A DNA stretch of 33,954 nt from Bacteroidota bacterium (lineage in GTDB: Bacteria > Bacteroidota > Bacteroidia > Chitinophagales > CAIODY01). The stretch covers positions 1 to 33,954 of the forward strand of contig JBEANU010000381.1 in NCBI GenBank assembly GCA_041165265.1. The letters are read 5' to 3'. Positions 1,000 through 33,954 of the stretch are shown piece by piece (within the stretch, counting starts at the first letter, position 1; each line of letters starts with the position of its first letter). The notes below the pieces were generated by a model, which was not told the DNA's origin, ran no database searches, and was given only the letters and a program-made list of their open reading frames with translations. The position numbers and the translations under genes are program-made.

Positions 1000-3978
1000 T
1001 TAGTTTGATTTTATCAATCTAACATTTAATAAATTATTGTTTGATTTAACTTTAATTGTATAAACTCCATTTGGATATTTAGCTAAAGATATTTTTTCAT
1101 TAAACTCATTTGTTGCTTTTGCTTGAATAGTTTTTGAATCCATCACCTGTCCTAAAGTATTTAAAACAGTTAATTCAGCAGTTGCCGATTTTAATTGAAA
1201 AGATAAATTCACATCATTAGTTACTGGGTTAGGGTAAGCATAAATTTGCGAAGGAGTAACATCATTAATGCCAGCTGGCCAAAAATTAACAGCCATAGTA
1301 TCAGTATATGTTCCGCAAGCACCATTTACTGTTAAAATAACCATGTGTGTACCATAGTTTGCATAATTATGAACTGGGTTTTGAGTGAATGCTAATGCTG
1401 TTGTATCGCCAAAATCCCATGTCCAACTAGTTGCATTGGTTGATAAATCAGCAAAGTAAACACTTGTTGAATCAGTGATGTAGCCAAATGAAGCGGCGCC
1501 TGATGCCAATACCATTTCTATAGAATCAACAACACTACAACCAGGTGCACTTGAAACTGTTACATGAATCCATCCTGTTGAATTTACAATAATAGTATCA
1601 TTTCTGGTAGTTTTTGTATCATCCCATAAATAAGTGTTAGTATTGCCAAATCCTCCACCACCTTGAGCTCTTAATACAACCTGTGTTCCAGGGCATACGG
1701 TATCAATACCAGGATTTAAGTTGGTGATATTGCCTGGGTTAGGCGGATTAACTGCTGTTACAGTAATTTGAACAGTTGAGCTACAAGCACCAATTGATCC
1801 TGTAATAGTATAATTACCACCACCTGGGCCACCAGCTGGCGTTACTGAAGCTGAATCATTAGCTGAAGATAAAAAAGTAACACCATTAGTGTTATTCCAT
1901 GAATAGGTAGTAGCACCCTTGATGGTAACTGTAGCACTTGATGATGTTAAGGTACAATATCTAATTGGTGATGATGGAGTAACTACTAAATTAGGTTGAA
2001 CCCCTGAAATTACTTCAATATTAATTGATGCTGTATCAGCACATCCAGCTGTATTTGATACAATTAAGGTGTATGGATATGTTCCAACGTTGGCTATCAT
2101 TGCAGTATCTCTTCTTGTAATTGGGCCGTTGCTCCAATTATAAGTTAATCCGCCACCAAATCCAGCATTAGGGCCCGTTAAAATAACCGTACCACCAGTA
2201 CACATGGTATCATTTACTAAATTAGTTGTAATAGTTGCTGTAGGTGTATTTGACCGTGTTACAGTAACCGATGCAGTAGTAGAGCAAATGCCGTTTGAGC
2301 CCGAAACTGTATATACTGTTGTGCCACCACCTGGGCCACCACCACCTGTTGGGGTTGCAATAACTGTAGTACCAGTTGATGTATTTAATGTTGCAGCTGG
2401 GGTCCAAGTATAAGTAGTAGCAGTGCCTGAAGCTACTAAAGTAACTCCTGGGCCACCCACACAATAGGTAGCTGTAATTGGCGAAACAGATACTGTAGGC
2501 GGAGTACCAACATTTACAACAATTGTAACCGTATCAGATGAAGAGCAACCTGTTGCATTAGATGTAACAGTGCCAATATATGTAGTAGTTGTAGTTGGCG
2601 AAATTGTATCTCTTCTTGTAATAGGGCCATTGCTCCAAGAGTAAGTGCCACCACCACCTGGGCCACCACCAATATTTGGCATTGTTAAAATTACTGTAGT
2701 TCCAACACAAATTGTATCATTAGGAATAGATGACGTAATTGTTGCATTTGGTGAATTTGATACTGTTAAAATAACTTGAGCAGTATCTGAGCAACCTGCA
2801 GCATCAAAACCAGTTACAACAATGGTACGAGTACCGCCACCAAAACCACCACCTGCAGGCGGTGTAGCTGTAACTGTTGAACCTGTTGTAGCATTTAAAC
2901 CAGCATTTGTTGATGACCAAGTATAGGTTAAAACATTTGAAGCAGTTAGTGTTGTAGTTGTACCACTACATAATGCTACCGTTGTAGGTGTAACCATTAC
3001 AGTTGGTAAAGCTGCATTACTAATATTTATTGAATCAAGTGGAGTGGTATAAGTTAAACCACTGCCTGAACAAGTAACAACACATTGGTAATACATCACT
3101 GCAGTAGGTGATGATAATACACCTGTATTGGCACTAATAGTATTACTTGAACCTGCAATTGTTGTAAAAGTACCTGTAGCTGTAGTTGAGCTTTGCCAAT
3201 CGTAAGTTAAACCACCGGCATTAGTAATAGGTGCTGTTAAAGTTAAATTTGCTGAACCTGAACCACCGCATATTATATTGGTACTATTAATAATTGAACC
3301 AACATTAGGTGTGCCGGTACACATTGGCGGAAATGCTGTCCATGAAATTTCATCAACAAAAATATTTCTACCAGTGTTACCGCCGCCGCCGCCAGCAACT
3401 CTTTGACTTGTTCCCTCAAACAAAATATAATTGCTTGCAGTATTAAATGAAGTTGGAATGGCAAATGAGTATTGATACCAGCCAATAGCTGCTTCAGTAT
3501 TAGGTAATGCAATTGCTGTTGAACGGGCAACGCCACCAATACGTGTTGCGCCCATAGTAGTATCTGAAGTATTTACCCAAATGGTAATACTATCGCCTTG
3601 CATAGCAAATGCAGTATCACGATATACCCACATGCTAACTGATGTAGCGGCTGTGCCTCTGCCTGACATATCAATCATTGGCGTACATAATGTTTGCATG
3701 CTTCCGGCAGCATTATTTCGGCTATCAAATCTTGCCATTGCTGTTCCTGCATAAGGGGTAGCGGCAGGATTAGTTCCATTAGGAGTTGTTCTCCGCCAAA
3801 TTTGATTTCCACCAACGCCACCAGTAATTAATGGTGAAATTTTCCAGCCAGTAGGTGCGAATGCAGCATTTTCAAACCCTTCAGTAGTAACTACTTGCGC
3901 AAAGGAGCTTGAACTTGATACAACCGAAAGCAATACAATTAGCATTGCAAAAAGGTGTTGTAATGTTCTTTTTTTCAT
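1000..3978 (-). CDS. T9SS type-A cargo surface protein: cleaved-adhesin/MAM-like N-terminal beta-sandwich, tandem Ig/PKD-like repeats, PKD domain, CTD
   Basis: Signal peptide ending SFA|Q; EGFE...W start and FVDEI end typical of cleaved-adhesin/MAM-like domains; repeated C..G..L..S...YTW and GCS motifs; PKD motif SWTWDFGD...NPVHNY; CTD YPNP...L..YPNGVYTIKV...LIK. Confidence 0.88.
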   Translation of the reverse strand: MKKRTLQHLFAMLIVLLSVVSSSSSFAQVVTTEGFENAAFAPTGWKISPLITGGVGGNQIWRRTTPNGTNPAATPYAGTAMARFDSRNNAAGSMQTLCTPMIDMSGRGTAATSVSMWVYRDTAFAMQGDSITIWVNTSDTTMGATRIGGVARSTAIALPNTEAAIGWYQYSFAIPTSFNTASNYILFEGTSQRVAGGGGGNTGRNIFVDEISWTAFPPMCTGTPNVGSIINSTNIICGGSGSANLTLTAPITNAGGLTYDWQSSTTATGTFTTIAGSSNTISANTGVLSSPTAVMYYQCVVTCSGSGLTYTTPLDSINISNAALPTVMVTPTTVALCSGTTTTLTASNVLTYTWSSTNAGLNATTGSTVTATPPAGGGFGGGTRTIVVTGFDAAGCSDTAQVILTVSNSPNATITSSIPNDTICVGTTVILTMPNIGGGPGGGGTYSWSNGPITRRDTISPTTTTTYIGTVTSNATGCSSSDTVTIVVNVGTPPTVSVSPITATYCVGGPGVTLVASGTATTYTWTPAATLNTSTGTTVIATPTGGGGPGGGTTVYTVSGSNGICSTTASVTVTRSNTPTATITTNLVNDTMCTGGTVILTGPNAGFGGGLTYNWSNGPITRRDTAMIANVGTYPYTLIVSNTAGCADTASINIEVISGVQPNLVVTPSSPIRYCTLTSSSATVTIKGATTYSWNNTNGVTFLSSANDSASVTPAGGPGGGNYTITGSIGACSSTVQITVTAVNPPNPGNITNLNPGIDTVCPGTQVVLRAQGGGGFGNTNTYLWDDTKTTRNDTIIVNSTGWIHVTVSSAPGCSVVDSIEMVLASGAASFGYITDSTSVYFADLSTNATSWTWDFGDTTALAFTQNPVHNYANYGTHMVILTVNGACGTYTDTMAVNFWPAGINDVTPSQIYAYPNPVTNDVNLSFQLKSATAELTVLNTLGQVMDSKTIQAKATNEFNEKISLAKYPNGVYTIKVKSNNNLLNVRLIKSN

Positions 3979-26152: not shown

Positions 26153-26381
26153 CTACTGAATGGTAATTTTTTGAATATACTTTTCATGTGTAGTATTGTT
26201 TTGAATAGTTATAAAATACAAACCCGATGCTGCTTCTATTAATTCTATTTGTTTATTAGTACCACTGTTTTTACAATTATATCCTATGGCTCTTCCGCTC
26301 AAATCTGTAATGCTGATTTGATAATTCTCATTAGGTAGCACTACTGTAAAGTTACCTGTGTTAGGATTGGGATATATTTGT
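26153..26381 (-). repeat. Direct repeat copy 1 (229 bp, T9SS CTD cassette)
   Basis: Ungapped match to 27342-27570 (offset 1189) with 11 mismatches by hand alignment; 26298-26381 is identical. Confidence 0.95.
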
Positions 26382-27376
26382 GCTAAAAGCAAACTCGAAT
26401 TAGAATCTTGTATACCATCTTCCTCTCCTTTTATTTTTACGGTTATTGTATCTGAAGTTAAATTACCACATAAATCCATTTTAACAATATACGATGTAGT
26501 ATGCATAGGATGAACCGTACAAATACTACTGGCTGCTATTTTATTGCCTTGCATATCATACCAATCACAGGGCAAGCCCAATGTGGTATGCAAGCCTAAA
26601 ACCACTGTATCACCTGCATTTATAGTGGTATCTTTACCTGCTTTTATTTTACTGCCTAAATCTATTACACTTACATCATCTATATAATAGTTTGCTTGAA
26701 AACCCTTTAATGGATTATTCAGAACAACACTATGCACATTCATAGTATCTGTAAATCGCCCTATGATTAATCGGTTCTCTGTTCCATTTGCTACAAAACA
26801 GCCTTGTATTTTAGTCCAATTTAACGTATCAGTTATGGGTATGCCCACTGGGCTATAGGCTTGTGCTGTTGCTAATGATACTTGATTTGGTATTGTAAAT
26901 AAAAGGCTTCCATCATCTACATAAGCCCCTAATTGGTCAACTGCATAATCAGAAGTAGCACATAAATTCACATAAAAACTCACTGCATACATATGTCCTA
27001 CTAGTAACTCACTTTTAAAATCTGTTTGGATGTAATCTGAAAAATTATTAATGCCTGGTTCGTTATAAGGCAGATTATAAAAAGAATTAATTGCTACCCC
27101 TCCGTTACTCCTAGGATATTTCATTGAATCAAATTGATTGGTAGGTAAAGTGCCGCTGCAAATATTTCCGATTGCCAAGCCTGCGGTATTTGGTGGGTAA
27201 GTCCACGGCATCCATGAGTAAGGTACACAGGTATCATATTCAAAGGAAGGATTGGGAATTAAGTTGATACTTGTTTGTGCTTTAGTGTAAAAAGGCAAAA
27301 AATAGAAAAGCACTGCTACTACCAATAACTTCTTACTTTTATTATTGAATGGTAATTTTTTGAATATACTTTTCAT
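26153..27376 (-). CDS. T9SS type-A cargo protein with NLIPNPSFE CBM-like beta-sandwich, Ig-like domain and CTD
   Basis: Signal region KKLLVVAVLFYFLPFYTKA|Q; NLIPNPSFE; Y.VSFYVNL; DTLNWTKIQG.F.A.G.E..L.IG.F; YYIDDVSV; CTD IYPNP...ASGLYFITI...KITIQ. Confidence 0.87.
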   Translation of the reverse strand: MKSIFKKLPFNNKSKKLLVVAVLFYFLPFYTKAQTSINLIPNPSFEYDTCVPYSWMPWTYPPNTAGLAIGNICSGTLPTNQFDSMKYPRSNGGVAINSFYNLPYNEPGINNFSDYIQTDFKSELLVGHMYAVSFYVNLCATSDYAVDQLGAYVDDGSLLFTIPNQVSLATAQAYSPVGIPITDTLNWTKIQGCFVANGTENRLIIGRFTDTMNVHSVVLNNPLKGFQANYYIDDVSVIDLGSKIKAGKDTTINAGDTVVLGLHTTLGLPCDWYDMQGNKIAASSICTVHPMHTTSYIVKMDLCGNLTSDTITVKIKGEEDGIQDSNSSLLLAQIYPNPNTGNFTVVLPNENYQISITDLSGRAIGYNCKNSGTNKQIELIEAASGLYFITIQNNTTHEKYIQKITIQ

Positions 27377-27570
27377 GTGTAGTATTGTTTTGAAGAGTTA
27401 TAAAATACAAACCTGATGCTGCTTCTGTTAATTCTATTTGTTTGTTAGTACCACTGTTTTTACAATTATATCTTACTGCTCTACCACTCAAATCTGTAAT
27501 GCTGATTTGATAATTCTCATTAGGTAGCACTACTGTAAAGTTACCTGTGTTAGGATTGGGATATATTTGT
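27342..27570 (-). repeat. Direct repeat copy 2 (229 bp, T9SS CTD cassette)
   Basis: Ungapped match to 26153-26381, about 95% identity. Confidence 0.95.
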
Positions 27571-30500
27571 AGCTTAGTATTGCTAAAGCGTACATTGTTC
27601 AATTTAATTTGATTTTTAGGTTTATATTTTCGCTGATTGCTGATGTTAGCACCTGCAGGAGCATTGCAATCGTCTGTAAAATCAATACCTGCATGATTTA
27701 ACAAACACCATAATGCACGGGCTATATATACCCCATATCCTTCGTAATAAGGACAACTATTGGCTAATGTTAAAATTGAAGCAGAATCAATACTACTTAA
27801 ACTTTGAGCTGAGGAATCAATTCCTAAAAAATCACTTGATTTAAATTTGCGAATCCAATCCATCAAATTCATATAATTTTGTTCGATATGATTTTGTGGC
27901 GAAAATGTGCTAATTAAATTTTGCAAATTAGTAGTATTCGAATCAGTGAGTACACTCATAATACTATCTATCAGCCTATAATTACTATTAAGCGATTGAT
28001 TATAAAAATCATCAATCATAGGGTCTCTCCCTAAAATACTATCCGCATGATTACGGATATAGTGATACAAATCATATTTAGCAATATAATCAGTCTCTAT
28101 TGGGTAAGGGCTATCAGCAGCAGCTTGTCCTACAATTATCTCGTTTAACCCTTGCCAATCAATAACATTGGTGGTTGTATCCGCTGATAATAATGTATCT
28201 GTTTTCAACATCTGCCTATAAGCGCTTAATTCATCATTTGAATAATCGGGTAATGGATTAGGTACAGTAGGAAAATTAAAAGGATAGTTAGTAGAACAAT
28301 TACTTGAAAAACCACTTGAATTTGTAATTAGAGAAAAACCAGAGACATAATGGTTAAGTGCATTAAAATTTACATTAGCTCCACTTGAATAGGTAGGGTC
28401 AGTGGTACTAGTAGTGGCTACAAACATACGACTAGAAGGAGTTGGACTAGAAATATTACAAAATGTCATATAAGGAACTGCAGCATTATAACTACCAACT
28501 GAATTATTCCAAGTAGTGCCTTGCCATGAATTATTGGCAGCCGAAGAAGTTGAACCTTGCTGCCCTATTATGCCTACATTATCTAATACAAATCCAAAAT
28601 AAGAGTTTTGAAACAATGTATTGTTTCTAAAAATGGAAAAATTGCAGTTGCCTGAAAACTGAATCCCTCTAGCAACATTAGCTACATTATTACAACTTAC
28701 AGTTGTGTAGGGTGTTGAATTAACTTTAATTCCATATTCTTTTGATAATGCGTTACAAGGAGTGGCAGTGGCATTAGGGTTTTGATTTACTATATTTGAA
28801 TTTGAACTCCCAGCTCTAAAAATTGCATTCTTACCAATATAATTTTGAGAATGATTGCTTACAATATAAATAGGAATAGGACAAGCTAATTGAATTTTCG
28901 GTGGATAGTTTGCATCAAAATTTATCCCATATTGGTCAGCATTTGATATAGTATTATTTGCAAAAGCAGTTGCTGCATTTCTTAAATATATTGTATTTTG
29001 ATATAAATAGAATAGTTTTCCTCCAGTTGCTGTAGAATTATTATTAAAGTTGGAAATATTGATTCCTCTAAATGAATTATTAATAAAATTATACGAAATA
29101 GTTATTGGATTAAAAGGTTGCAATCCGCTAATCGGTGAATATGGAGTTGGTGGAGTTGGTTGGGTAGTCATTTGAGTTTGTAGTAAGTTAGAAAGATAAA
29201 TAGCAGTATTAGTGTATTCACTTCCACTTGCTGGATTGCTTGTACATACACTACAAAATTTATCAATTGTATTATAATTAATATTAACCTCTCCATCAAC
29301 GAAGGTACCTAATCCCATTGCAGGTGACCCAAAGCAGCTAAACAATCCATTACCTGGAATTGGTCTTGTATTCATAGTAATAGGTGATTCAATATTGTAA
29401 AATTTATTAGATAAAATAGAATATTTTAAAAATTGTCCTGTTTCAATGAATAGCCCTTGGTATCCATAATGTTGAGAGTTACTAGCAATTGAAAATTGAG
29501 GCGCCGCTGTTGATGATAAACTTTGATTGCTTTTAAAAGTAGAATATCGAACATCAACATCCATGTACATATCACAAACTAAACTTCTAACACAATTATA
29601 AAATCGATTGCCATAATAATATTTGTAATCATCAGATGAAGTAATATAAGAAGAGCCTAAAATTAAACTACCCTGCCCATCCAAAGTATAATTACGTAAA
29701 AAGATTCCAGTGCCTCCATATTGATAAGATAATGAAGAAGGCATACTGCCTTGATAAATCATATTTTGAAAAACATTATCATAACAACGTAAATTAGATT
29801 CATTACTATTTATTTGATTATAATTATTTCTTGGAAATTCAACTCCATTTGATTGTTGTTTTGCTAATATCCCAAAACAAAGATTGTCAAAAACATTTGC
29901 AGATGTAGATAATGGGAGTGAACTTGTAGGAGATAAACCAACTATTAATGGATAAACTGTTTCAGTATAGGTTGAAAGTATTTTTGGGACATTTGAACAT
30001 AAATTAATATTTGTAATACATGTAGCACCTACATTATCAACTAAAATGCCTGCTTTAGGTTTATCATTTTGGTAAGGTTGGTGTAGTGAAGTACTAACAA
30101 TTACATTTGGATTAAAGGAATATTCAGGGGTTAAGCAATAAAAAGTAGAAATTGGTTCATTTTTCATAAAATTAGTTAATTGGGTATAACTAGAACATTT
30201 ATATGACCCAATTGCACTTGTAGTGGCATGAGTAAAAATATTTCTAAAAGTAAATAATGAACCTATGATACTTATAGGAATATTTTGCTGCAATTTCATA
30301 TTGCTTAATGATACACCTACATAATTATTATTAAGTACAGACCCATCAATAGTTAATATTTTTTGATTTCCATTATAACCAATTACATTATACGATGAAG
30401 TATTATTATAGTCAATACTAACTGCACTTATTGCATCTTCAATTATGCTATTATTCTTAATTATTAATTGCCCACCTGGCTCAACTACAATTCCATTCCA

Positions 30501-30890
30501 CATATCAGTACAATTATAAAGATGCGAATTATCTATAACCAGGCATTGACCATTAGGTATTTTTAAAGTAACTCCTTTATCTAATGCTAATGATATATTC
30601 TGAAAAATTACTGTCCCAAGAATTGAAACAACATATGGGTTTTGACCAATGTTAGGTACACCATAAACTCCAACACCACTATTTAATTGTGCCGTTTTTA
30701 TAATTCCACCTTGACCAATTAAAGTCACCTCACTTTGACAAAGAAATTGAAAAGAGGAACCATTCTGTATTTGTGTAAAACCTTTATTTGAAAATAAAAG
30801 TAATTGACTAGCAAAAATGGCAGAAATAAAAGTTAATTTACTTCTATTGGTCAATTTTGACGTTTTAAGAATTAGTAATTTTAAGTTCAT
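27342..30890 (-). CDS. Large T9SS type-A cargo protein, probable right-handed beta-helix plus helical region plus CTD
   Basis: Signal peptide; C..MWNGIVV..GG.L.I..NSIIEDA; many Asn/Ile-rich N.I/N.F...GI repeats; LANSCPY.EG..VY.AR; CTD IYPNP. Confidence 0.82.
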   Translation of the reverse strand: MNLKLLILKTSKLTNRSKLTFISAIFASQLLLFSNKGFTQIQNGSSFQFLCQSEVTLIGQGGIIKTAQLNSGVGVYGVPNIGQNPYVVSILGTVIFQNISLALDKGVTLKIPNGQCLVIDNSHLYNCTDMWNGIVVEPGGQLIIKNNSIIEDAISAVSIDYNNTSSYNVIGYNGNQKILTIDGSVLNNNYVGVSLSNMKLQQNIPISIIGSLFTFRNIFTHATTSAIGSYKCSSYTQLTNFMKNEPISTFYCLTPEYSFNPNVIVSTSLHQPYQNDKPKAGILVDNVGATCITNINLCSNVPKILSTYTETVYPLIVGLSPTSSLPLSTSANVFDNLCFGILAKQQSNGVEFPRNNYNQINSNESNLRCYDNVFQNMIYQGSMPSSLSYQYGGTGIFLRNYTLDGQGSLILGSSYITSSDDYKYYYGNRFYNCVRSLVCDMYMDVDVRYSTFKSNQSLSSTAAPQFSIASNSQHYGYQGLFIETGQFLKYSILSNKFYNIESPITMNTRPIPGNGLFSCFGSPAMGLGTFVDGEVNINYNTIDKFCSVCTSNPASGSEYTNTAIYLSNLLQTQMTTQPTPPTPYSPISGLQPFNPITISYNFINNSFRGINISNFNNNSTATGGKLFYLYQNTIYLRNAATAFANNTISNADQYGINFDANYPPKIQLACPIPIYIVSNHSQNYIGKNAIFRAGSSNSNIVNQNPNATATPCNALSKEYGIKVNSTPYTTVSCNNVANVARGIQFSGNCNFSIFRNNTLFQNSYFGFVLDNVGIIGQQGSTSSAANNSWQGTTWNNSVGSYNAAVPYMTFCNISSPTPSSRMFVATTSTTDPTYSSGANVNFNALNHYVSGFSLITNSSGFSSNCSTNYPFNFPTVPNPLPDYSNDELSAYRQMLKTDTLLSADTTTNVIDWQGLNEIIVGQAAADSPYPIETDYIAKYDLYHYIRNHADSILGRDPMIDDFYNQSLNSNYRLIDSIMSVLTDSNTTNLQNLISTFSPQNHIEQNYMNLMDWIRKFKSSDFLGIDSSAQSLSSIDSASILTLANSCPYYEGYGVYIARALWCLLNHAGIDFTDDCNAPAGANISNQRKYKPKNQIKLNNVRFSNTKLQIYPNPNTGNFTVVLPNENYQISITDLSGRAVRYNCKNSGTNKQIELTEAASGLYFITLQNNTTHEKYIQKITIQ

Positions 30891-31057
30891 GTTTAATTTT
30901 GATTTAAAGTTATCAATTTAGGTTCATTTTAATTCGAGTATTAACAAAACTAAATAATTATATGAGATATAAAAAAAATACAATAACAATAAATCGTTTA
31001 TTTTATAAATTCATTTCTAAAAATAACAAAAAATAATCTATTCAATAATTATTCAAA

Positions 31058-31843
31058 TTATTCGTAGCTAAATATTTTCGATAAATTGGCAGCCAGTTTA
31101 TTGGCTAATGAAGTTGAATTATCGGAAATGGTTTTTACATTTAAATTAGATGAATTTGTAACATCAATACCATCCAGTAATTTACCATAATCAATAGTAA
31201 GATGAATATATTGGTTAAGATTAGCCGTTACAGAAAAATTTTGCTCAGGCATTGTAATACTCGTATAATGATTATTTTTTCCAATTTTATAATCGAATGA
31301 TTGCATTTGATTGATGTTTCCATTCATTGAAATCGAAGTATCAATTTTGCCACTTAGGTGAGCAAATACATATCCATCATTAGTTGTAAAAGTACTACCA
31401 AACCACATTTCTGAATGATTTAAAATAGAATTGGATGTTGGCAATACCTGATTTTCAGTAGCATCAAAACCAATATTAAATTTCACCGTTTTATAATTAC
31501 CTACAGGTACTGAGCCTATTACTATTTCTTCGGCATCTAAAGTTTTTAAAATTTTTGAATTCTCAATTTCAATTTCTGTTCCATCTAATTTTACCACTTT
31601 AATATGCGATAAATAAATTTGAGCCAAGCTTAATGATAATTTTCTGCCATCATTATTGGTATAAACCGAATCATAAGCTTCTATTTCTGATGTATCAATA
31701 TTAGAGTGAATGTGCAACACTAATGTGCCTTTCGGAACTTCAGTAGTAGGATTTGTTTTGTCTTTTTTACATGATGCTATGATTAATGTGATGGCAAATA
31801 TGCCTATCCATTTTATGGTTTTGTTTATTTTATTTGATGTCAT
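31058..31843 (-). CDS. MbnP-like lipoprotein (copper-associated family), divergent
   Basis: Lipobox IIAS-C-KKD; YLS.IK....DG, VP.G.Y....F.IG.D, M W...GY.F..L.G, I.L..D..KL.DG, A..LA.N...F match my recollection of Bacteroidota MbnP proteins. Confidence 0.68.
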   Translation of the reverse strand: MTSNKINKTIKWIGIFAITLIIASCKKDKTNPTTEVPKGTLVLHIHSNIDTSEIEAYDSVYTNNDGRKLSLSLAQIYLSHIKVVKLDGTEIEIENSKILKTLDAEEIVIGSVPVGNYKTVKFNIGFDATENQVLPTSNSILNHSEMWFGSTFTTNDGYVFAHLSGKIDTSISMNGNINQMQSFDYKIGKNNHYTSITMPEQNFSVTANLNQYIHLTIDYGKLLDGIDVTNSSNLNVKTISDNSTSLANKLAANLSKIFSYE

Positions 31844-31854
31844 TTTATTTTTAT

Positions 31855-32928
31855 TTAATAGGTATAACTAATGGAAGTATTAATACTATTTTTCAACGGA
31901 GATTGAATTCCATTGTAATAATAAAAAAGCTGAAAGCCATATTCAGCGCTTATTTTAAAGTGTGATAATGTTTTGTTTTTACTGATAAAACTTGAGCCAA
32001 TATAAATCTGCATAAATCTACCACCATAATTTTTTGCATTAGCCATGGGTTCATTAAATTCATAAAGTGTAGCATCATATCCATTTATTTTTCCAATATA
32101 ATTTGCTTCAAAATGTATGGATGAACTAATACAATTTAACCATGAATAGGCTCCCCATAAATGAATTACAGATTCATTTCCTAAATGATAATGAATTGAG
32201 TTGTGATAGAATCTGATAGAATTATTCCATTGCATCCCCGATGCCCATTTGTTTTTTCGAATGCTATAACTTAGTCCTGGCAAAATATCAAAAGTGCCTG
32301 AATCCATTTGCATCATGTATGGCAATCTGCTTGATGTGTAACTCATATCATTTTTATTTCCTTTTTGATTTATACTGCCTGTTGGTAAATTCAAGCCGCC
32401 AATTAATATGATTTGATGCAAATCGTTTTTATACAATCCATACAGGGCAAATAATTGAATATCTAAAAAGCCATTATTCATCATCATTTCATTATGATTG
32501 GTTGAATGATGCATGTTCATCATTGTTGAATTGGCAGTTGGAAGCATTTGCATATTCATCGTATTAATACGATAATTAATCATACTCATTACAGTTAGTT
32601 TATTATTGATGCCATACATTGCCATCAGCATGTGCATTTGCATATTCATTTTATTGGATAGCATTAAATAATTATTGTACACTTCATTTTCAACAATTGC
32701 CTTATTGCCATTTATCAAACCCTTTGTATTCATATTCATTACAGAATAAGAAATCATCCATTTATTTTTTTTATGCAAATGGCTAAGCATAACCGATGAT
32801 GGCGTTAAATTAGTTTTGCAACAGCACCCATTATTGCATACAATTGTTGAATCGCAAGAAGCCTTTGATTCCATGTTTTGAAATAATAATAGCACTGCCA
32901 CAATTATTTTTATAAATAGTTGTCGCAT
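31855..32928 (-). CDS. Met/His/Cys-rich outer-membrane beta-barrel channel (COG4313/MetA-pathway-like transporter), putative metal uptake
   Basis: Signal peptide; P..VM..H.H.K.KWMISY..M.M, M.M.MHML.AMYG, GF.D, GLNLPTGS, RLPY.MQ..SGT.D, N.GG; C-terminal aromatic Y; about 31 Met in 357 aa. Confidence 0.7.
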   Translation of the reverse strand: MRQLFIKIIVAVLLLFQNMESKASCDSTIVCNNGCCCKTNLTPSSVMLSHLHKKNKWMISYSVMNMNTKGLINGNKAIVENEVYNNYLMLSNKMNMQMHMLMAMYGINNKLTVMSMINYRINTMNMQMLPTANSTMMNMHHSTNHNEMMMNNGFLDIQLFALYGLYKNDLHQIILIGGLNLPTGSINQKGNKNDMSYTSSRLPYMMQMDSGTFDILPGLSYSIRKNKWASGMQWNNSIRFYHNSIHYHLGNESVIHLWGAYSWLNCISSSIHFEANYIGKINGYDATLYEFNEPMANAKNYGGRFMQIYIGSSFISKNKTLSHFKISAEYGFQLFYYYNGIQSPLKNSINTSISYTY

Positions 32929-32945
32929 TTCAATTTAGTTAAATT

Positions 32946-32980
32946 AAAAAATTATTCATCTGCACAAATGCAGTGAATAA
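32946..32980 (-). terminator. Intra-operon hairpin plus U6 tract (putative attenuator) between the small ORF and the barrel gene
   Basis: Minus strand UUAUUCA-CUGCA-uuug-UGCAG-a-UGAAUAA followed by UUUUUU; 12 bp with one bulge; starts 27 nt after the stop at 33008. Confidence 0.6.
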
Positions 32981-33007
32981 GATAGTTTCAGTAAAAAAAA
33001 GAATGTA

Positions 33008-33373
33008 CTAAAGTTGAGGTGGACGAAAAAATGAAAGAGAAAAACTAGAGAAGTAATGATTAATAAATGTGGATTTGAATTCAAAAAAAGTTTTTGAAAT
33101 AAAACTTTTTAATTGAAAATGATGTTGAATAAAAAGGTCTTCAAATTTTTCTTTTGAATTAGATGAATTAGGCTTGCTGCTATTTTCATCTTCTTTCATT
33201 TGCTTTTTTAAATGACAACATCCTTGGCAATCATTATTTTCAATATTGCGTTTTACACAAATATTTTTAGCAATATAATTTCTATTTACATTGAAATTAA
33301 CCACAATAAAAAACTTAGTAAAACTTTGCGACAATACCGCAATAGAAAGCAATATGATGAAAATGTTTTTCAA
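33008..33373 (-). CDS. Small exported or membrane-anchored Cys-motif protein ending in FFRPP; candidate regulatory uORF (CruR/CutF/DUF2946-like)
   Basis: TTG start; hydrophobic N-terminus; YIAKNICVKR...CQGCCHLKKQM; low-complexity charged linker; terminal FFRPPQL. Confidence 0.75.
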   Translation of the reverse strand: MKNIFIILLSIAVLSQSFTKFFIVVNFNVNRNYIAKNICVKRNIENNDCQGCCHLKKQMKEDENSSKPNSSNSKEKFEDLFIQHHFQLKSFISKTFFEFKSTFINHYFSSFSLSFFRPPQL

Positions 33374-33383
33374 ATGATGATTA

Positions 33384-33428
33384 CAAAAGTAAACTATAAT
33401 TTGATTTCAATTTCGTGATTATTGTCAT
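33384..33428 (-). promoter_or_regulatory. Promoter of the putative copper operon: -7 TACTTTTG plus upstream Crp/Fnr-like box
   Basis: TACTTTTG (minus strand) at 33384-33391, 10 nt before TTG 33373; GTGA-ttattg-TCAT at 33415-33428. Confidence 0.55.
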
Positions 33429-33506
33429 ACGCTTCTTTAGAAAATACCATTCTTCTCTTTGGGGAAGATTAAGATGAGGTCATTAATAAACATTTTCTGA
33501 AGAAGT

Positions 33507-33954
33507 CTATTTCAAAAAGAATAATCCACAAATAAATATAGCAGCAATTACACAAATCAAATCCACCAAAAGCATGGTAGATAAAGTATATCGAGTATCT
33601 TTTATTTTTATTGAACCAAAATAAACCGCAATTACATAAAAGGTAGTTTCGGCTGAGCATTGAAACACACAAGCCAATCTGCCAGTAAAGGAATCAGCAC
33701 CATAAGTACGCATAGCATCCAACATAAATCCACGAGCACCACCCGAACTAAATGGGCGCAATAACCCAACTGGTAATGCATCAACAATTGATTTATTGAT
33801 ATGAAAACTTAAAAATAATTTTGAAATTAGGTTTGATAAAATTTCAAATACGCCACTATTTCTGAATATGGAAATAGCCACCAACATACCTATAATGTAA
33901 GGAAAAATAGTAACGCCTGTTTTTGCGCCATTCGCTGCACCATTCACAAATGAA
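33507..33954 (-). CDS. Nucleoside-recognition (Gate) domain membrane protein, SpmA/SpmB family, 3' part only
   Basis: F..GA..G......IFPY..GMLVAI..FR.SG, P..L.RP.S..GARG, G.DS..G, S.ETTFYV.AVYFGS..IK.TRY. The frame is open to the right edge, so the GTG at 33947 is not the true start. Confidence 0.88.
   Translation of the reverse strand, partial: SFVNGAANGAKTGVTIFPYIIGMLVAISIFRNSGVFEILSNLISKLFLSFHINKSIVDALPVGLLRPFSSGGARGFMLDAMRTYGADSFTGRLACVFQCSAETTFYVIAVYFGSIKIKDTRYTLSTMLLVDLICVIAAIFICGLFFLK

Follow-up and report, generated by a model that had tools for sequence, protein, structure and literature searches.

On the minus strand of contig JBEANU010000381.1 (assembly GCA_041165265.1, from a Bacteroidota bacterium), the sequence and its open reading frames (ORFs) reveal a three-gene unit in which a small ORF of 121 amino acids (aa) is followed by the genes of a Met/His-rich outer-membrane channel and of an MbnP-like lipoprotein. 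We refer to the whole 33,954-nt stretch analysed here as the window and to the small ORF as the leader. By analogy with CruR of Bordetella pertussis and CutF of Rhodobacter capsulatus, the leader is probably a cis-acting, copper-sensing translational-arrest leader, an analogue of these two proteins but not a member of their family, DUF2946. Copper as the metal is a choice that we infer from the neighbouring genes. An earlier reading of the window, made from its letters alone (the sequence-only reading), had proposed a nascent-chain metal switch acting through an intrinsic terminator, and had rightly treated both the metal and the regulatory direction as not determinable. The switch itself has since gained a conserved leader-type gene, a Cys motif, a Pro-Pro (PP) close to the end and copper-type genes downstream, while the terminator as its output is not supported.

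Word-based searching with the leader returned only two proteins, of 96% and 67% identity, ending in HPPQF and HPPKF. Among 1.84 billion cluster representatives, a search by profile matched 2920 at E≤1e-3, 332 of them at E≤1e-10, most being 110 to 130 aa long and aligning end to end. On account of these close homologues and cluster-representative matches, the ORF is, by sequence comparison, more than a chance reading frame and belongs to a large unnamed family. Its members are built from a transmembrane (TM) helix, the Cys motif C-x9/10-C-x-G-x-C, a spacer of ~65 residues and the end S-[IV]-F-[H/R/Q]-P-P, after which 1 to 10 residues remain. The corresponding parts in the window are a TM helix at residues 2-29, the Cys motif at residues 39-54, a variable, unstructured spacer, F116-R117-P118-P119, then Q-L and the stop. 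The sequence-only reading had described a 121-aa ORF with C-x9-C-x2-CCH and a terminal RPP; the Cys motif is indeed there as C39-x9-C49-x2-C52-C53-H54, and so is R117-P118-P119, which is, however, near-terminal, as Q-L-stop comes after it.

To describe the family we used 151 members, of which 82 were aligned; a logo was anchored on PP in 149. All 151 members carry Cx8-11CxGxC, and 146 have PP no more than 15 aa from the end, with a tail after PP of 1-10 aa (mode 2); among the other five, three have the motif with longer tails and two are apparently truncated. The residue pair before PP is FH in 101 of the 151 members, FR in 15 and FQ in 13, and in the logo F is found in 135 sequences and H/R/Q in 139, with PP, being the anchor, in all 149. 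Cys motif and PP stay 62-71 residues apart (mode 65) despite a highly variable sequence between. C39, C49, G51, C53, P118 and P119 are invariant in the 82 aligned members; the family-wide Cys triad consists of C39, C49 and C53, and C52 is not conserved. Of the conservation among homologues that the sequence-only reading had named as a check, that of the Cys motif and of the PP near the end is present, and the spacing between these two is conserved as well. Seen as a whole, the logo has an N-terminal block, LLQ[ST]FSK..I..F..N[RQK][DE]YIAKNLC..[KR]....N.C.G.C[HQY]LKKQL, and a C-terminal block, S-[IV]-F-[H/R/Q]-P-P, with little conserved between the two.

AlphaFold2 (AF2), run on the 82-member alignment, modelled helices at residues 2-29, 31-38 and 52-66 with the Cys loop between, at an overall predicted local distance difference test (pLDDT) of 82, and left residues 67-112 without secondary structure. 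The hydrophobic N-terminal end, conserved in the logo and covered by the helix at 2-29, is predicted to be an N-terminal membrane anchor or export signal. No real Pfam match was found in the 82 members, none at E≤0.1 for the window's protein and no NCBIfam match for the family; the search for a solved-structure relative by sequence gave only a chance-level match (E 0.12). The source names of the visible family members are all 'hypothetical protein', and the nearest ESM-Atlas clusters are unnamed Bacteroidota clusters. In the literature searched, supplementary tables not covered, we found no description of the family or of a Bacteroidota copper leader, in agreement with the earlier statement that no characterised Bacteroidota counterpart was known.

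The family is common in the phylum. Its profile matches 110 of the 301 Bacteroidota genomes sampled, in 58 of the 144 genera; two or three copies per genome are frequent, sometimes in tandem, ~3.6 kb apart. None of the 201 Pseudomonadota genomes sampled is matched. In the same 301 Bacteroidota genomes, PF11162 (DUF2946) was found in seven at E≤1e-3, four of them above the cut-off, at loci other than the leader's. The source genome carries only one leader of the family. Four loci (L055, L056, L059 and L060) hold two leaders each, 2-3.7 kb apart, as tandem modules that have a leader of their own; examples are leader-SCO1-Fe/Mn superoxide dismutase then leader-MbnP-MbnH, and leader-receptor-PepSY_TM beside leader-MbnP-MbnH. 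Three contigs with leader and barrel (L095, L098 and L106) are titled as Kuenenia or Saccharibacteria metagenome-assembled genomes (MAGs), yet have a Bacteroidota-like gene content, and these titles may be binning errors.

The genes that follow the leaders point to copper. For a view of the gene context, we hand-picked 60 places from the profile matches, spread over kinship classes and with full-length matches preferred; these contain 64 leaders, whose first two downstream ORFs were tallied by Pfam scans and a profile of the window's barrel. As many as 55 of the 64 leaders have a TonB-dependent receptor, MbnP/MbnH, SCO1 or a COG4313-type barrel in these two ORFs, and the linkage to metal genes on which the sequence-only reading had staked its proposal is thus seen as copper-type genes behind 55/64 leaders. 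A TonB-dependent receptor stands downstream of 29 leaders (in six after a YtkA-like gene, in five with PepSY_TM, in three with BNR_2 and in one with SCO1), MbnP and/or MbnH downstream of 15 (11 with both, two with barrel and MbnP like the window), SCO1 without a receptor downstream of six (four barrel plus SCO1, two SCO1 plus Fe/Mn superoxide dismutase) and a COG4313-type barrel only downstream of five, which leaves nine with other or unknown genes. The upstream genes, scanned in 58 cases, are mostly unrelated (citrate synthase, SecA, phosphoglucomutase, malate dehydrogenase), seven being metal-related. Similarly, of 13 loci found via the barrel protein, the 11 not titled Gammaproteobacteria carry a leader directly upstream, whereas the two gammaproteobacterial loci do not. 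At one gammaproteobacterial MAG locus, L105:2461-2892 (+), the barrel homologue is preceded by a 143-aa ORF with a His run, Cys and the end NPRAPPYLREC; this ORF has a CruR-like RAPP end, yet no Pfam DUF2946 match at E≤0.01. SCO1 and Fe/Mn superoxide dismutase come after a leader at L059:6871-8375 and L060:2214-3641, an arrangement that may place copper-sparing enzyme replacement under the same control.

The architecture of these loci is reminiscent of CruR (Bp2923, PF11162). In both cases, a small exported or membrane-targeted protein is first in copper-type operons, with a conserved Cys motif, a PP motif a few residues before the stop and conserved spacing (PMC9426467). The operons are alike as well: genes reported downstream of DUF2946 include TonB-dependent transporters (TBDT), PepSY_TM, Sco, PCuAC, YcnI, CopC, MbnPH-like and AhpC_TSA, of which TonB-dependent receptor, PepSY_TM, Sco and MbnPH recur at leader loci (PMC9426467). 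The differences lie in the motifs, C-x9/10-C-x-G-x-C and F-[H/R/Q]-P-P in the leader versus CXXC and RAPP as described for CruR, and in the range, the leader family being one of Bacteroidota and DUF2946 one of Proteobacteria, with a few reported in Planctomycetes, Firmicutes and Deinococcus (PMC9426467). Output differs too: CruR is described as acting via Rho (PMC9426467), whereas for the leader a helix masking the next gene's start region is better supported. The distance from Cys to Pro is ~65 residues (62-71) in the leader family, 45 in CruR (PMC9426467) and ~69 in CutF (10.1101/2025.02.05.636593).

With CutF, encoded in cutFOG and likewise a DUF2946 protein, the geometry is nearly the same. 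CutF is given as a 118-aa protein with Cys41xxxCys45, P114-P116 and the tail R-L (10.1101/2025.02.05.636593); the leader has 121 aa, C39..C53, P118-P119 and the tail Q-L, with C53 lying 65 residues ahead of P118. No homology accompanies this likeness. For a DUF2946 comparison set we extracted 25 genomic sequences, each with R-[A/G/D]-P-P or a similar motif and 2-6 further residues at its end; the genome searches had found DUF2946 in 2/151 genomes at class level (E≤1e-6) and in 35/121 at order level. Aligning the 82-member alignment with these 25 sequences led us to reject homology (hhalign probability 0.06% global and 1.3% local, the latter over the signal helix only), and none of the 82 members matched PF11162 at E≤0.01. 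On this comparison, the leader family is an analogue of DUF2946 and not a member of it. A further difference is that CutF is reported to control a detoxifying multicopper oxidase with a copper-induced stall, whereas the leader precedes acquisition-type genes; because its downstream genes look acquisition-type, a sign opposite to that of CutF seems likelier.

The leader may also be compared with RAPP-like arrest peptides of the 'RQH family', to which SecM, ApdA, ApdP and the uA/uDF_RQH peptides of Bacteroidales and Flavobacteriales are assigned (PMC10987492, PMC12992588). These, too, are described as small secretory or membrane proteins with R/Q/H ahead of prolines near the C-terminal end (PMC10987492, PMC12992588). 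Their motif as given there is [R/Q/H]-[A/G]-P-P, whereas in the leader R/Q/H abuts PP, Phe comes before it and there is no A/G position. Moreover, RQH peptides are reported to monitor Sec/YidC genes, not metal operons (PMC10987492, PMC12992588), and we saw no Sec/YidC gene among the scanned ORFs downstream of the leaders, with SecA upstream in 2/58 loci. The 2025 RAPP survey took only RAPP- and RGPP-containing proteins (PMC12992588), and would for this reason miss the leader family.

A second Bacteroidota family carries the same kind of end. DUF6660 (PF20365) occurs in 28 of 151 Bacteroidota genomes, one of them the source genome (contig C82), and in 12 members shows a hydrophobic N-terminal end, C-[SP]-P-F-C-x-C-x-C-C, a spacer of ~48 residues and [IL]-W-[Q/E]-P-P plus 2-3 residues. 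In all eight loci fetched, the next genes encode proteins of ~1450 aa and ~420 aa. In the four loci scanned with Pfam, these proteins are an efflux pump that fuses ACR_tran with OEP and an adaptor of the CusB type. Like the leader family, DUF6660 thus combines a hydrophobic N-terminal end, a Cys cluster, a spacer, a PP end and first place in a metal operon; unlike it, and otherwise unrelated to it, DUF6660 precedes resistance-nodulation-division (RND) efflux pumps rather than uptake-type genes. In a local hhalign comparison of the two families, an alignment was obtained for the last 22 residues only (probability 30%, E 5e-4), the part that would lie in the ribosomal tunnel. DUF6660 looks like a second arrest-type metal leader family, as judged from this build, and its name was not found in the literature searched. 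The member in the source genome, at C82:24662-24922 (= L127:1063-1323), has CSPFCFCNCC and the end IWQPPKVS; the genes immediately downstream of it encode a 1447-aa fusion of RND pump and outer-membrane factor and a CusB-like adaptor. It and the window's leader are the only two credible small ORFs with an FHPP/WQPP-type end in that genome; a count of such 4-mers for signs of avoidance there was uninformative, with ~1 expected and 0-4 observed per pattern. As a tentative generalisation, quite possible rather than probable, a Bacteroidota arrest module [S]-[IV]-[F/W]-[H/Q/R]-P-P may have been recruited by at least two unrelated Cys-rich leader families (the FHPP family and DUF6660) for phylum-wide nascent-chain sensing of periplasmic metal, with arrest unmasking a start that has no Shine-Dalgarno sequence.

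How might arrest on the leader be passed on to the next gene? In the minimum free energy (MFE) fold of the window, a long-range helix joins the end of the leader to the start region of the barrel gene, and a stem-loop lies nested inside it (Table 1). Bacteroidota mostly lack Shine-Dalgarno-led initiation. For this reason, the masked element here would be the A-rich start region; this region, AATTTAACTAAATTGAAATG, is identical in the nearest relative, locus L094. Across the family, we compared the segment from the first Pro codon to +32 with positions -35..+6 of the next gene in 42 of 72 records, namely, those with intergenic distances of 25-150 nt; the remaining records were excluded because of their distance, a short window or the lack of a PP. 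The median number of paired nucleotides was 7.1, compared to 0.25 for an equal upstream window and 1.75 for shuffles, and at least 8 paired nucleotides were reached in 20/42 loci versus 3/42 and 1/42, respectively. Among the 20 loci that pair most strongly, the peak of pairing falls at +9..+21 on the 5′ strand, counted from the first Pro codon, and at -24..-9 on the 3′ strand, counted from the start. Many loci are predicted to pair the leader's last codons, its stop and a few following bases with bases just upstream of the next start, after the manner of a SecM/CutF-type switch, and unrelated sequences forming the same helix architecture were seen among the example loci. On these folding results, output by unmasking the next gene's start is better supported than output by a terminator.

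A simpler rule did not emerge. Many downstream genes begin with ATGAAA, to which the Phe-His codons TTTCAT are exactly reverse-complementary, a correspondence that holds in 11/72 records; masking of the next gene's ATGAAA by these codons was predicted in 8/47 and we rejected it as a rule, leaving it as a minority feature. Between L094 (2899-2904 with 3001-3006) and the window (33028-33020 with 32927-32922), a leader His-to-Arg change accompanies a barrel codon-2 Lys-to-Arg change, and this paired change keeps some pairing; the case is anecdotal.

The sequence-only reading had instead placed control in the nested hairpin and its U6 tract. Both are there: the stem is real and stable (-11.6 kcal/mol, z -4.1, with 0/200 shuffles folding as well), U6 adjoins it, and it was owing to its bulge that a scan for consensus terminators overlooked it. 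An attenuator, in which the position of the ribosome on the leader decides whether hairpin and U6 terminate transcription before the channel gene, would draw on this stability, on the location between leader and channel gene, on the stem being kept in L094 and on a T6 at the exact place being uncommon by chance, runs of at least six T having a density of 2.33 per kb per strand in the window. We nevertheless consider it unlikely. In L094 the stem is kept with its loop and bulge changed, and U6 is replaced by ACTATTTAATTTAATTT. Even under permissive rules, only 8/64 other loci show a hairpin of ≤-7 kcal/mol followed by at least four T, a count on which we rejected a family-wide terminator, and the barrel-type relatives have nested hairpins without U-tracts. 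Furthermore, the stem starts ~27 nt past the front edge of a ribosome with the first Pro codon in its P site and ~15 nt past a ribosome at the stop, so that it would be blocked in neither state, and no antiterminator or other ribosome-controllable alternative pairing able to block it was seen at the window locus. Hairpin and U6 may terminate part of the transcripts; they are probably not the regulated step. A different route to termination is the one described for CruR, where the arrested ribosome blocks Rho loading and its release lets Rho terminate in the intergenic region. For such an uptake-type operon, no other mechanism is known to have been dissected by experiment (PMC9426467), and a part of the family has intergenic regions long enough (upper quartile >208 nt) to accommodate a Rho site. 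Against it, the window's own intergenic region has 79 nt, is very A+T-rich and contains few C, and in many family loci leader and next gene are separated by 15-60 nt. We consider Rho control of this kind improbable here.

A serious rival, albeit one to which we give a clearly lower chance, is that the leader is a stable protein anchored in the inner membrane that binds copper and acts in trans, as a chaperone, sensor or accessory subunit, its FHPP end being a docking or metal-ligand motif rather than an arrest site. The confident helical model of residues 2-66 with the Cys loop between helices would suit such a protein, as would the strongly conserved N-terminal half, YIAKNLC..K....N.C.G.CHLKKQL; co-occurrence with copper proteins is compatible with a structural partner no less than with a regulator, and the His adjoining PP could be a ligand. 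The C-terminal half is harder to accommodate, having no predicted secondary structure and being highly variable except for the last six residues before the tail, while the Cys-to-PP distance is held at 62-71 across this variable spacer. The same end module also sits on the unrelated DUF6660 with other partners, the partners of the leader itself (receptors, MbnPH, SCO1, barrels) differ more widely than is usual for a specific subunit, and around half of the loci are predicted to pair the stop region with the start of the next gene. Finally, a Cys-rich small ORF adjoining an MbnP-family gene recalls methanobactin, whose operons are accompanied by MbnP/MbnH, and the leader might be the precursor of a ribosomally made copper-binding peptide. 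This is highly improbable: the Cys motif lies behind the TM helix in the N-terminal third and not in a C-terminal core, what follows most family members is a TonB-dependent receptor, SCO1 or a barrel, and neither the window nor the scanned neighbours hold an MbnB/MbnC-type or other modifying enzyme, the finding on which we rejected a modified-peptide precursor.

For the arrest leader, we picture the following course. During translation, the N-terminal helix would target the nascent chain to the inner membrane. The ribosome would pause at F-R-P-P, five codons ahead of the stop, as suggested by the conservation of this site, and from the geometry the Cys triad would by then stand ~65 residues from the peptidyl-transferase centre, past tunnel and translocon. 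Copper binding to the Cys motif would, by analogy with CruR and CutF, alter the duration of arrest. As long as it is arrested, the ribosome would hold the final codons and the stop free of pairing, the next gene's initiation region would stay accessible and the channel would be translated. Folding predicts this unmasking step in about half of the family's testable loci (20/42), and weakly in the window. Arrest and expression when copper is scarce, with release on copper binding, is the likelier direction, because the controlled genes look like acquisition genes.

Several observations weigh against this picture. We infer arrest, metal binding and cis action alike, and since there is no homology to DUF2946, the analogy with CruR and CutF is one of architecture and neighbouring genes. 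Elongation factor P (EF-P) normally relieves a bare PP. Residues 1-66 of the leader are modelled with pLDDT ≥90, which would also suit a stable membrane protein. Its TTG start lies only 10 nt past the promoter-like motif TACTTTTG, and gene callers put the start of both close homologues at a later TTG. Leaders are not always first in their transcript, as a few (L035, L046, L059, L060 and L062) trail a co-directional gene by only 3-16 nt. As for the RNA pairing, it is absent or weak in 22/42 loci, and in the window it is weak, with 4.9 paired nucleotides versus 1.7 in shuffles, 2/30 of which reach 4.9. The windows of the test were set after examples had been seen, downstream starts were taken by a crude longest-ORF rule, and the loci are related, so that a Wilcoxon p of ~4e-5 overstates the case. 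A first version of the test, with 37 loci, had given a median of 5.5 versus 1.2 nt in shuffles, 12/37 loci with z>2 and a z of 0.97 for the window. In addition, a quarter of the intergenic distances exceed 208 nt, which is hard to reconcile with direct melting.

If the proposal is true, nascent-chain metal sensing as in CruR and CutF would extend to a second major phylum via a non-homologous family, which would argue for the design having arisen more than once, and F/W-H/Q/R-P-P would be a new arrest motif tuned to Bacteroidota ribosomes. Thousands of 'hypothetical' genes would gain a function, and probably DUF6660 as well. Copper import in Bacteroidota is poorly known; the leaders would flag candidate uptake genes, namely, Met-rich COG4313 channels, pairs of YtkA-like protein and TonB-dependent receptor, and MbnP/MbnH. 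They would also offer a model for how arrest is coupled to translation of the next gene in a phylum mostly without Shine-Dalgarno-led initiation.

Table 1. Features of the leader locus in the window, listed in their order along the minus strand.
Feature	Position	Strand	Basis
10-nt palindrome TTGAAATCAA	33410-33401	-	read from sequence; 'Crp/Fnr-like box' of the sequence-only reading
TACTTTTG, match to TAnnTTTG -7 promoter motif	33391-33384	-	sequence
Leader ORF, 121 aa, TTG start	33373..33008	-	ORF list, homologues, family profile
Cys-motif codons C39-x9-C49-Q-G-C52-C53-H54	33212..33259	-	sequence and family alignment
F116-R117-P118-P119 codons, proposed arrest site	33017..33028	-	family conservation
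Predicted long-range helix, 5′ strand (R-P-P-Q-L codons and stop)	33024-33007	-	MFE fold; pairs with barrel start region
Stem-loop of 12 pairs, one bulged A, loop UUUG	32980-32952	-	folding
U6 tract directly 3′ of stem	32951-32946	-	sequence
Predicted long-range helix, 3′ strand, -11..+6 around barrel start codon at 32928 (includes AUG)	32939-32922	-	MFE fold
Met/His-rich outer-membrane beta-barrel channel, COG4313/Phenol_MetA_deg type, 357 aa	32928..31855	-	homologues, AF2, structure match
MbnP-family lipoprotein, 261 aa, lipobox IASC	31843..31058	-	Pfam PF20243

The two genes behind the leader had been described from the sequence as a Met/His/Cys-rich outer-membrane barrel and an MbnP-like lipoprotein, and both descriptions are apt. 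The channel protein contains 31 Met, 13 His and 6 Cys in 357 aa, and its AF2 model is an all-beta barrel (pLDDT 79, predicted template-modelling score 0.75) that, among solved structures, best matches the COG4313 channel 4rl8 (E 4e-11, template-modelling score by target 0.73). A word search returned 66 homologues, several with PF13557 (Phenol_MetA_deg), while the window's protein itself has no Pfam match at E≤0.1, PF13557 included. Like COG4313/4rl8 channels in its barrel fold, it is unlike them in being Met/His-rich, with a Cys-rich N-terminal end and the motif MxMQMHMLMAMYG; because of these features, which include eight Met invariant in 24 aligned homologues, the sequence suggests a metal rather than a hydrophobic substrate. 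Residues 25-48 (32784-32856, minus strand) read C-x6-C-x3-CCC then AP.G.M..H.H.KGEWM and are conserved in close homologues, and residues 17-37 are poorly modelled by AF2, with pLDDT <50. This Cys-rich mature N-terminal end may be a metal-capturing plug or tether.

The third gene's product has the lipobox IASC and matches the Pfam family MbnP (PF20243) at E 4.3e-23, with 82.6 bits versus a cut-off of 27; against NCBIfam TIGR04052 it scores only 20.9 bits versus an equivalog cut-off of 140. It stands without an MbnH partner (CCP_MauG), none being found among the window's other ORFs. The source genome has two further MbnP genes, at C305:1913-2464 (E 1.7e-43) and C274:131-667 (E 2.5e-41), both of which match Pfam more strongly than the window's copy. 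As the genome has only one family leader, neither is headed by one; contig C274 ends 130 bases upstream.

The order on the minus strand is thus 10-nt palindrome, TAnnTTTG match, 121-aa ORF, 79-nt spacer, 357-aa ORF and 261-aa ORF. The promoter motif named in the sequence-only reading is present as TACTTTTG, a match to the Bacteroidota -7 promoter motif, TAnnTTTG. It ends 10 nt 5′ of the leader's TTG, and the 5′ leader of the transcript would be very short if this promoter were used. The supposed Crp/Fnr-like box, TTGAAATCAA, bears only a weak resemblance to such a site and we rejected it as one, its spacing of TTGA-N2-TCAA misfitting the consensus TTGAT-N4-ATCAA. The palindrome overlaps the expected place of a -33 element and may just as well be an operator or a promoter element of the -33 type; it is identical in L094, but this is uninformative, the entire upstream region being near-identical there. 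A search of positions 30800-33954 gave no Rfam match at E≤1.

The source genome comprises 2.7 Mb in 382 contigs at ~30% G+C, and the other genes of the window are housekeeping genes and type-IX-secretion cargo. Two of the cargo genes adjoin each other on the minus strand, at 26153-27376 and 27342-30890. They are otherwise dissimilar, and their C-terminal sorting domains are near-identical (76/79 residues), which suggests a recent duplication or conversion of the tail.

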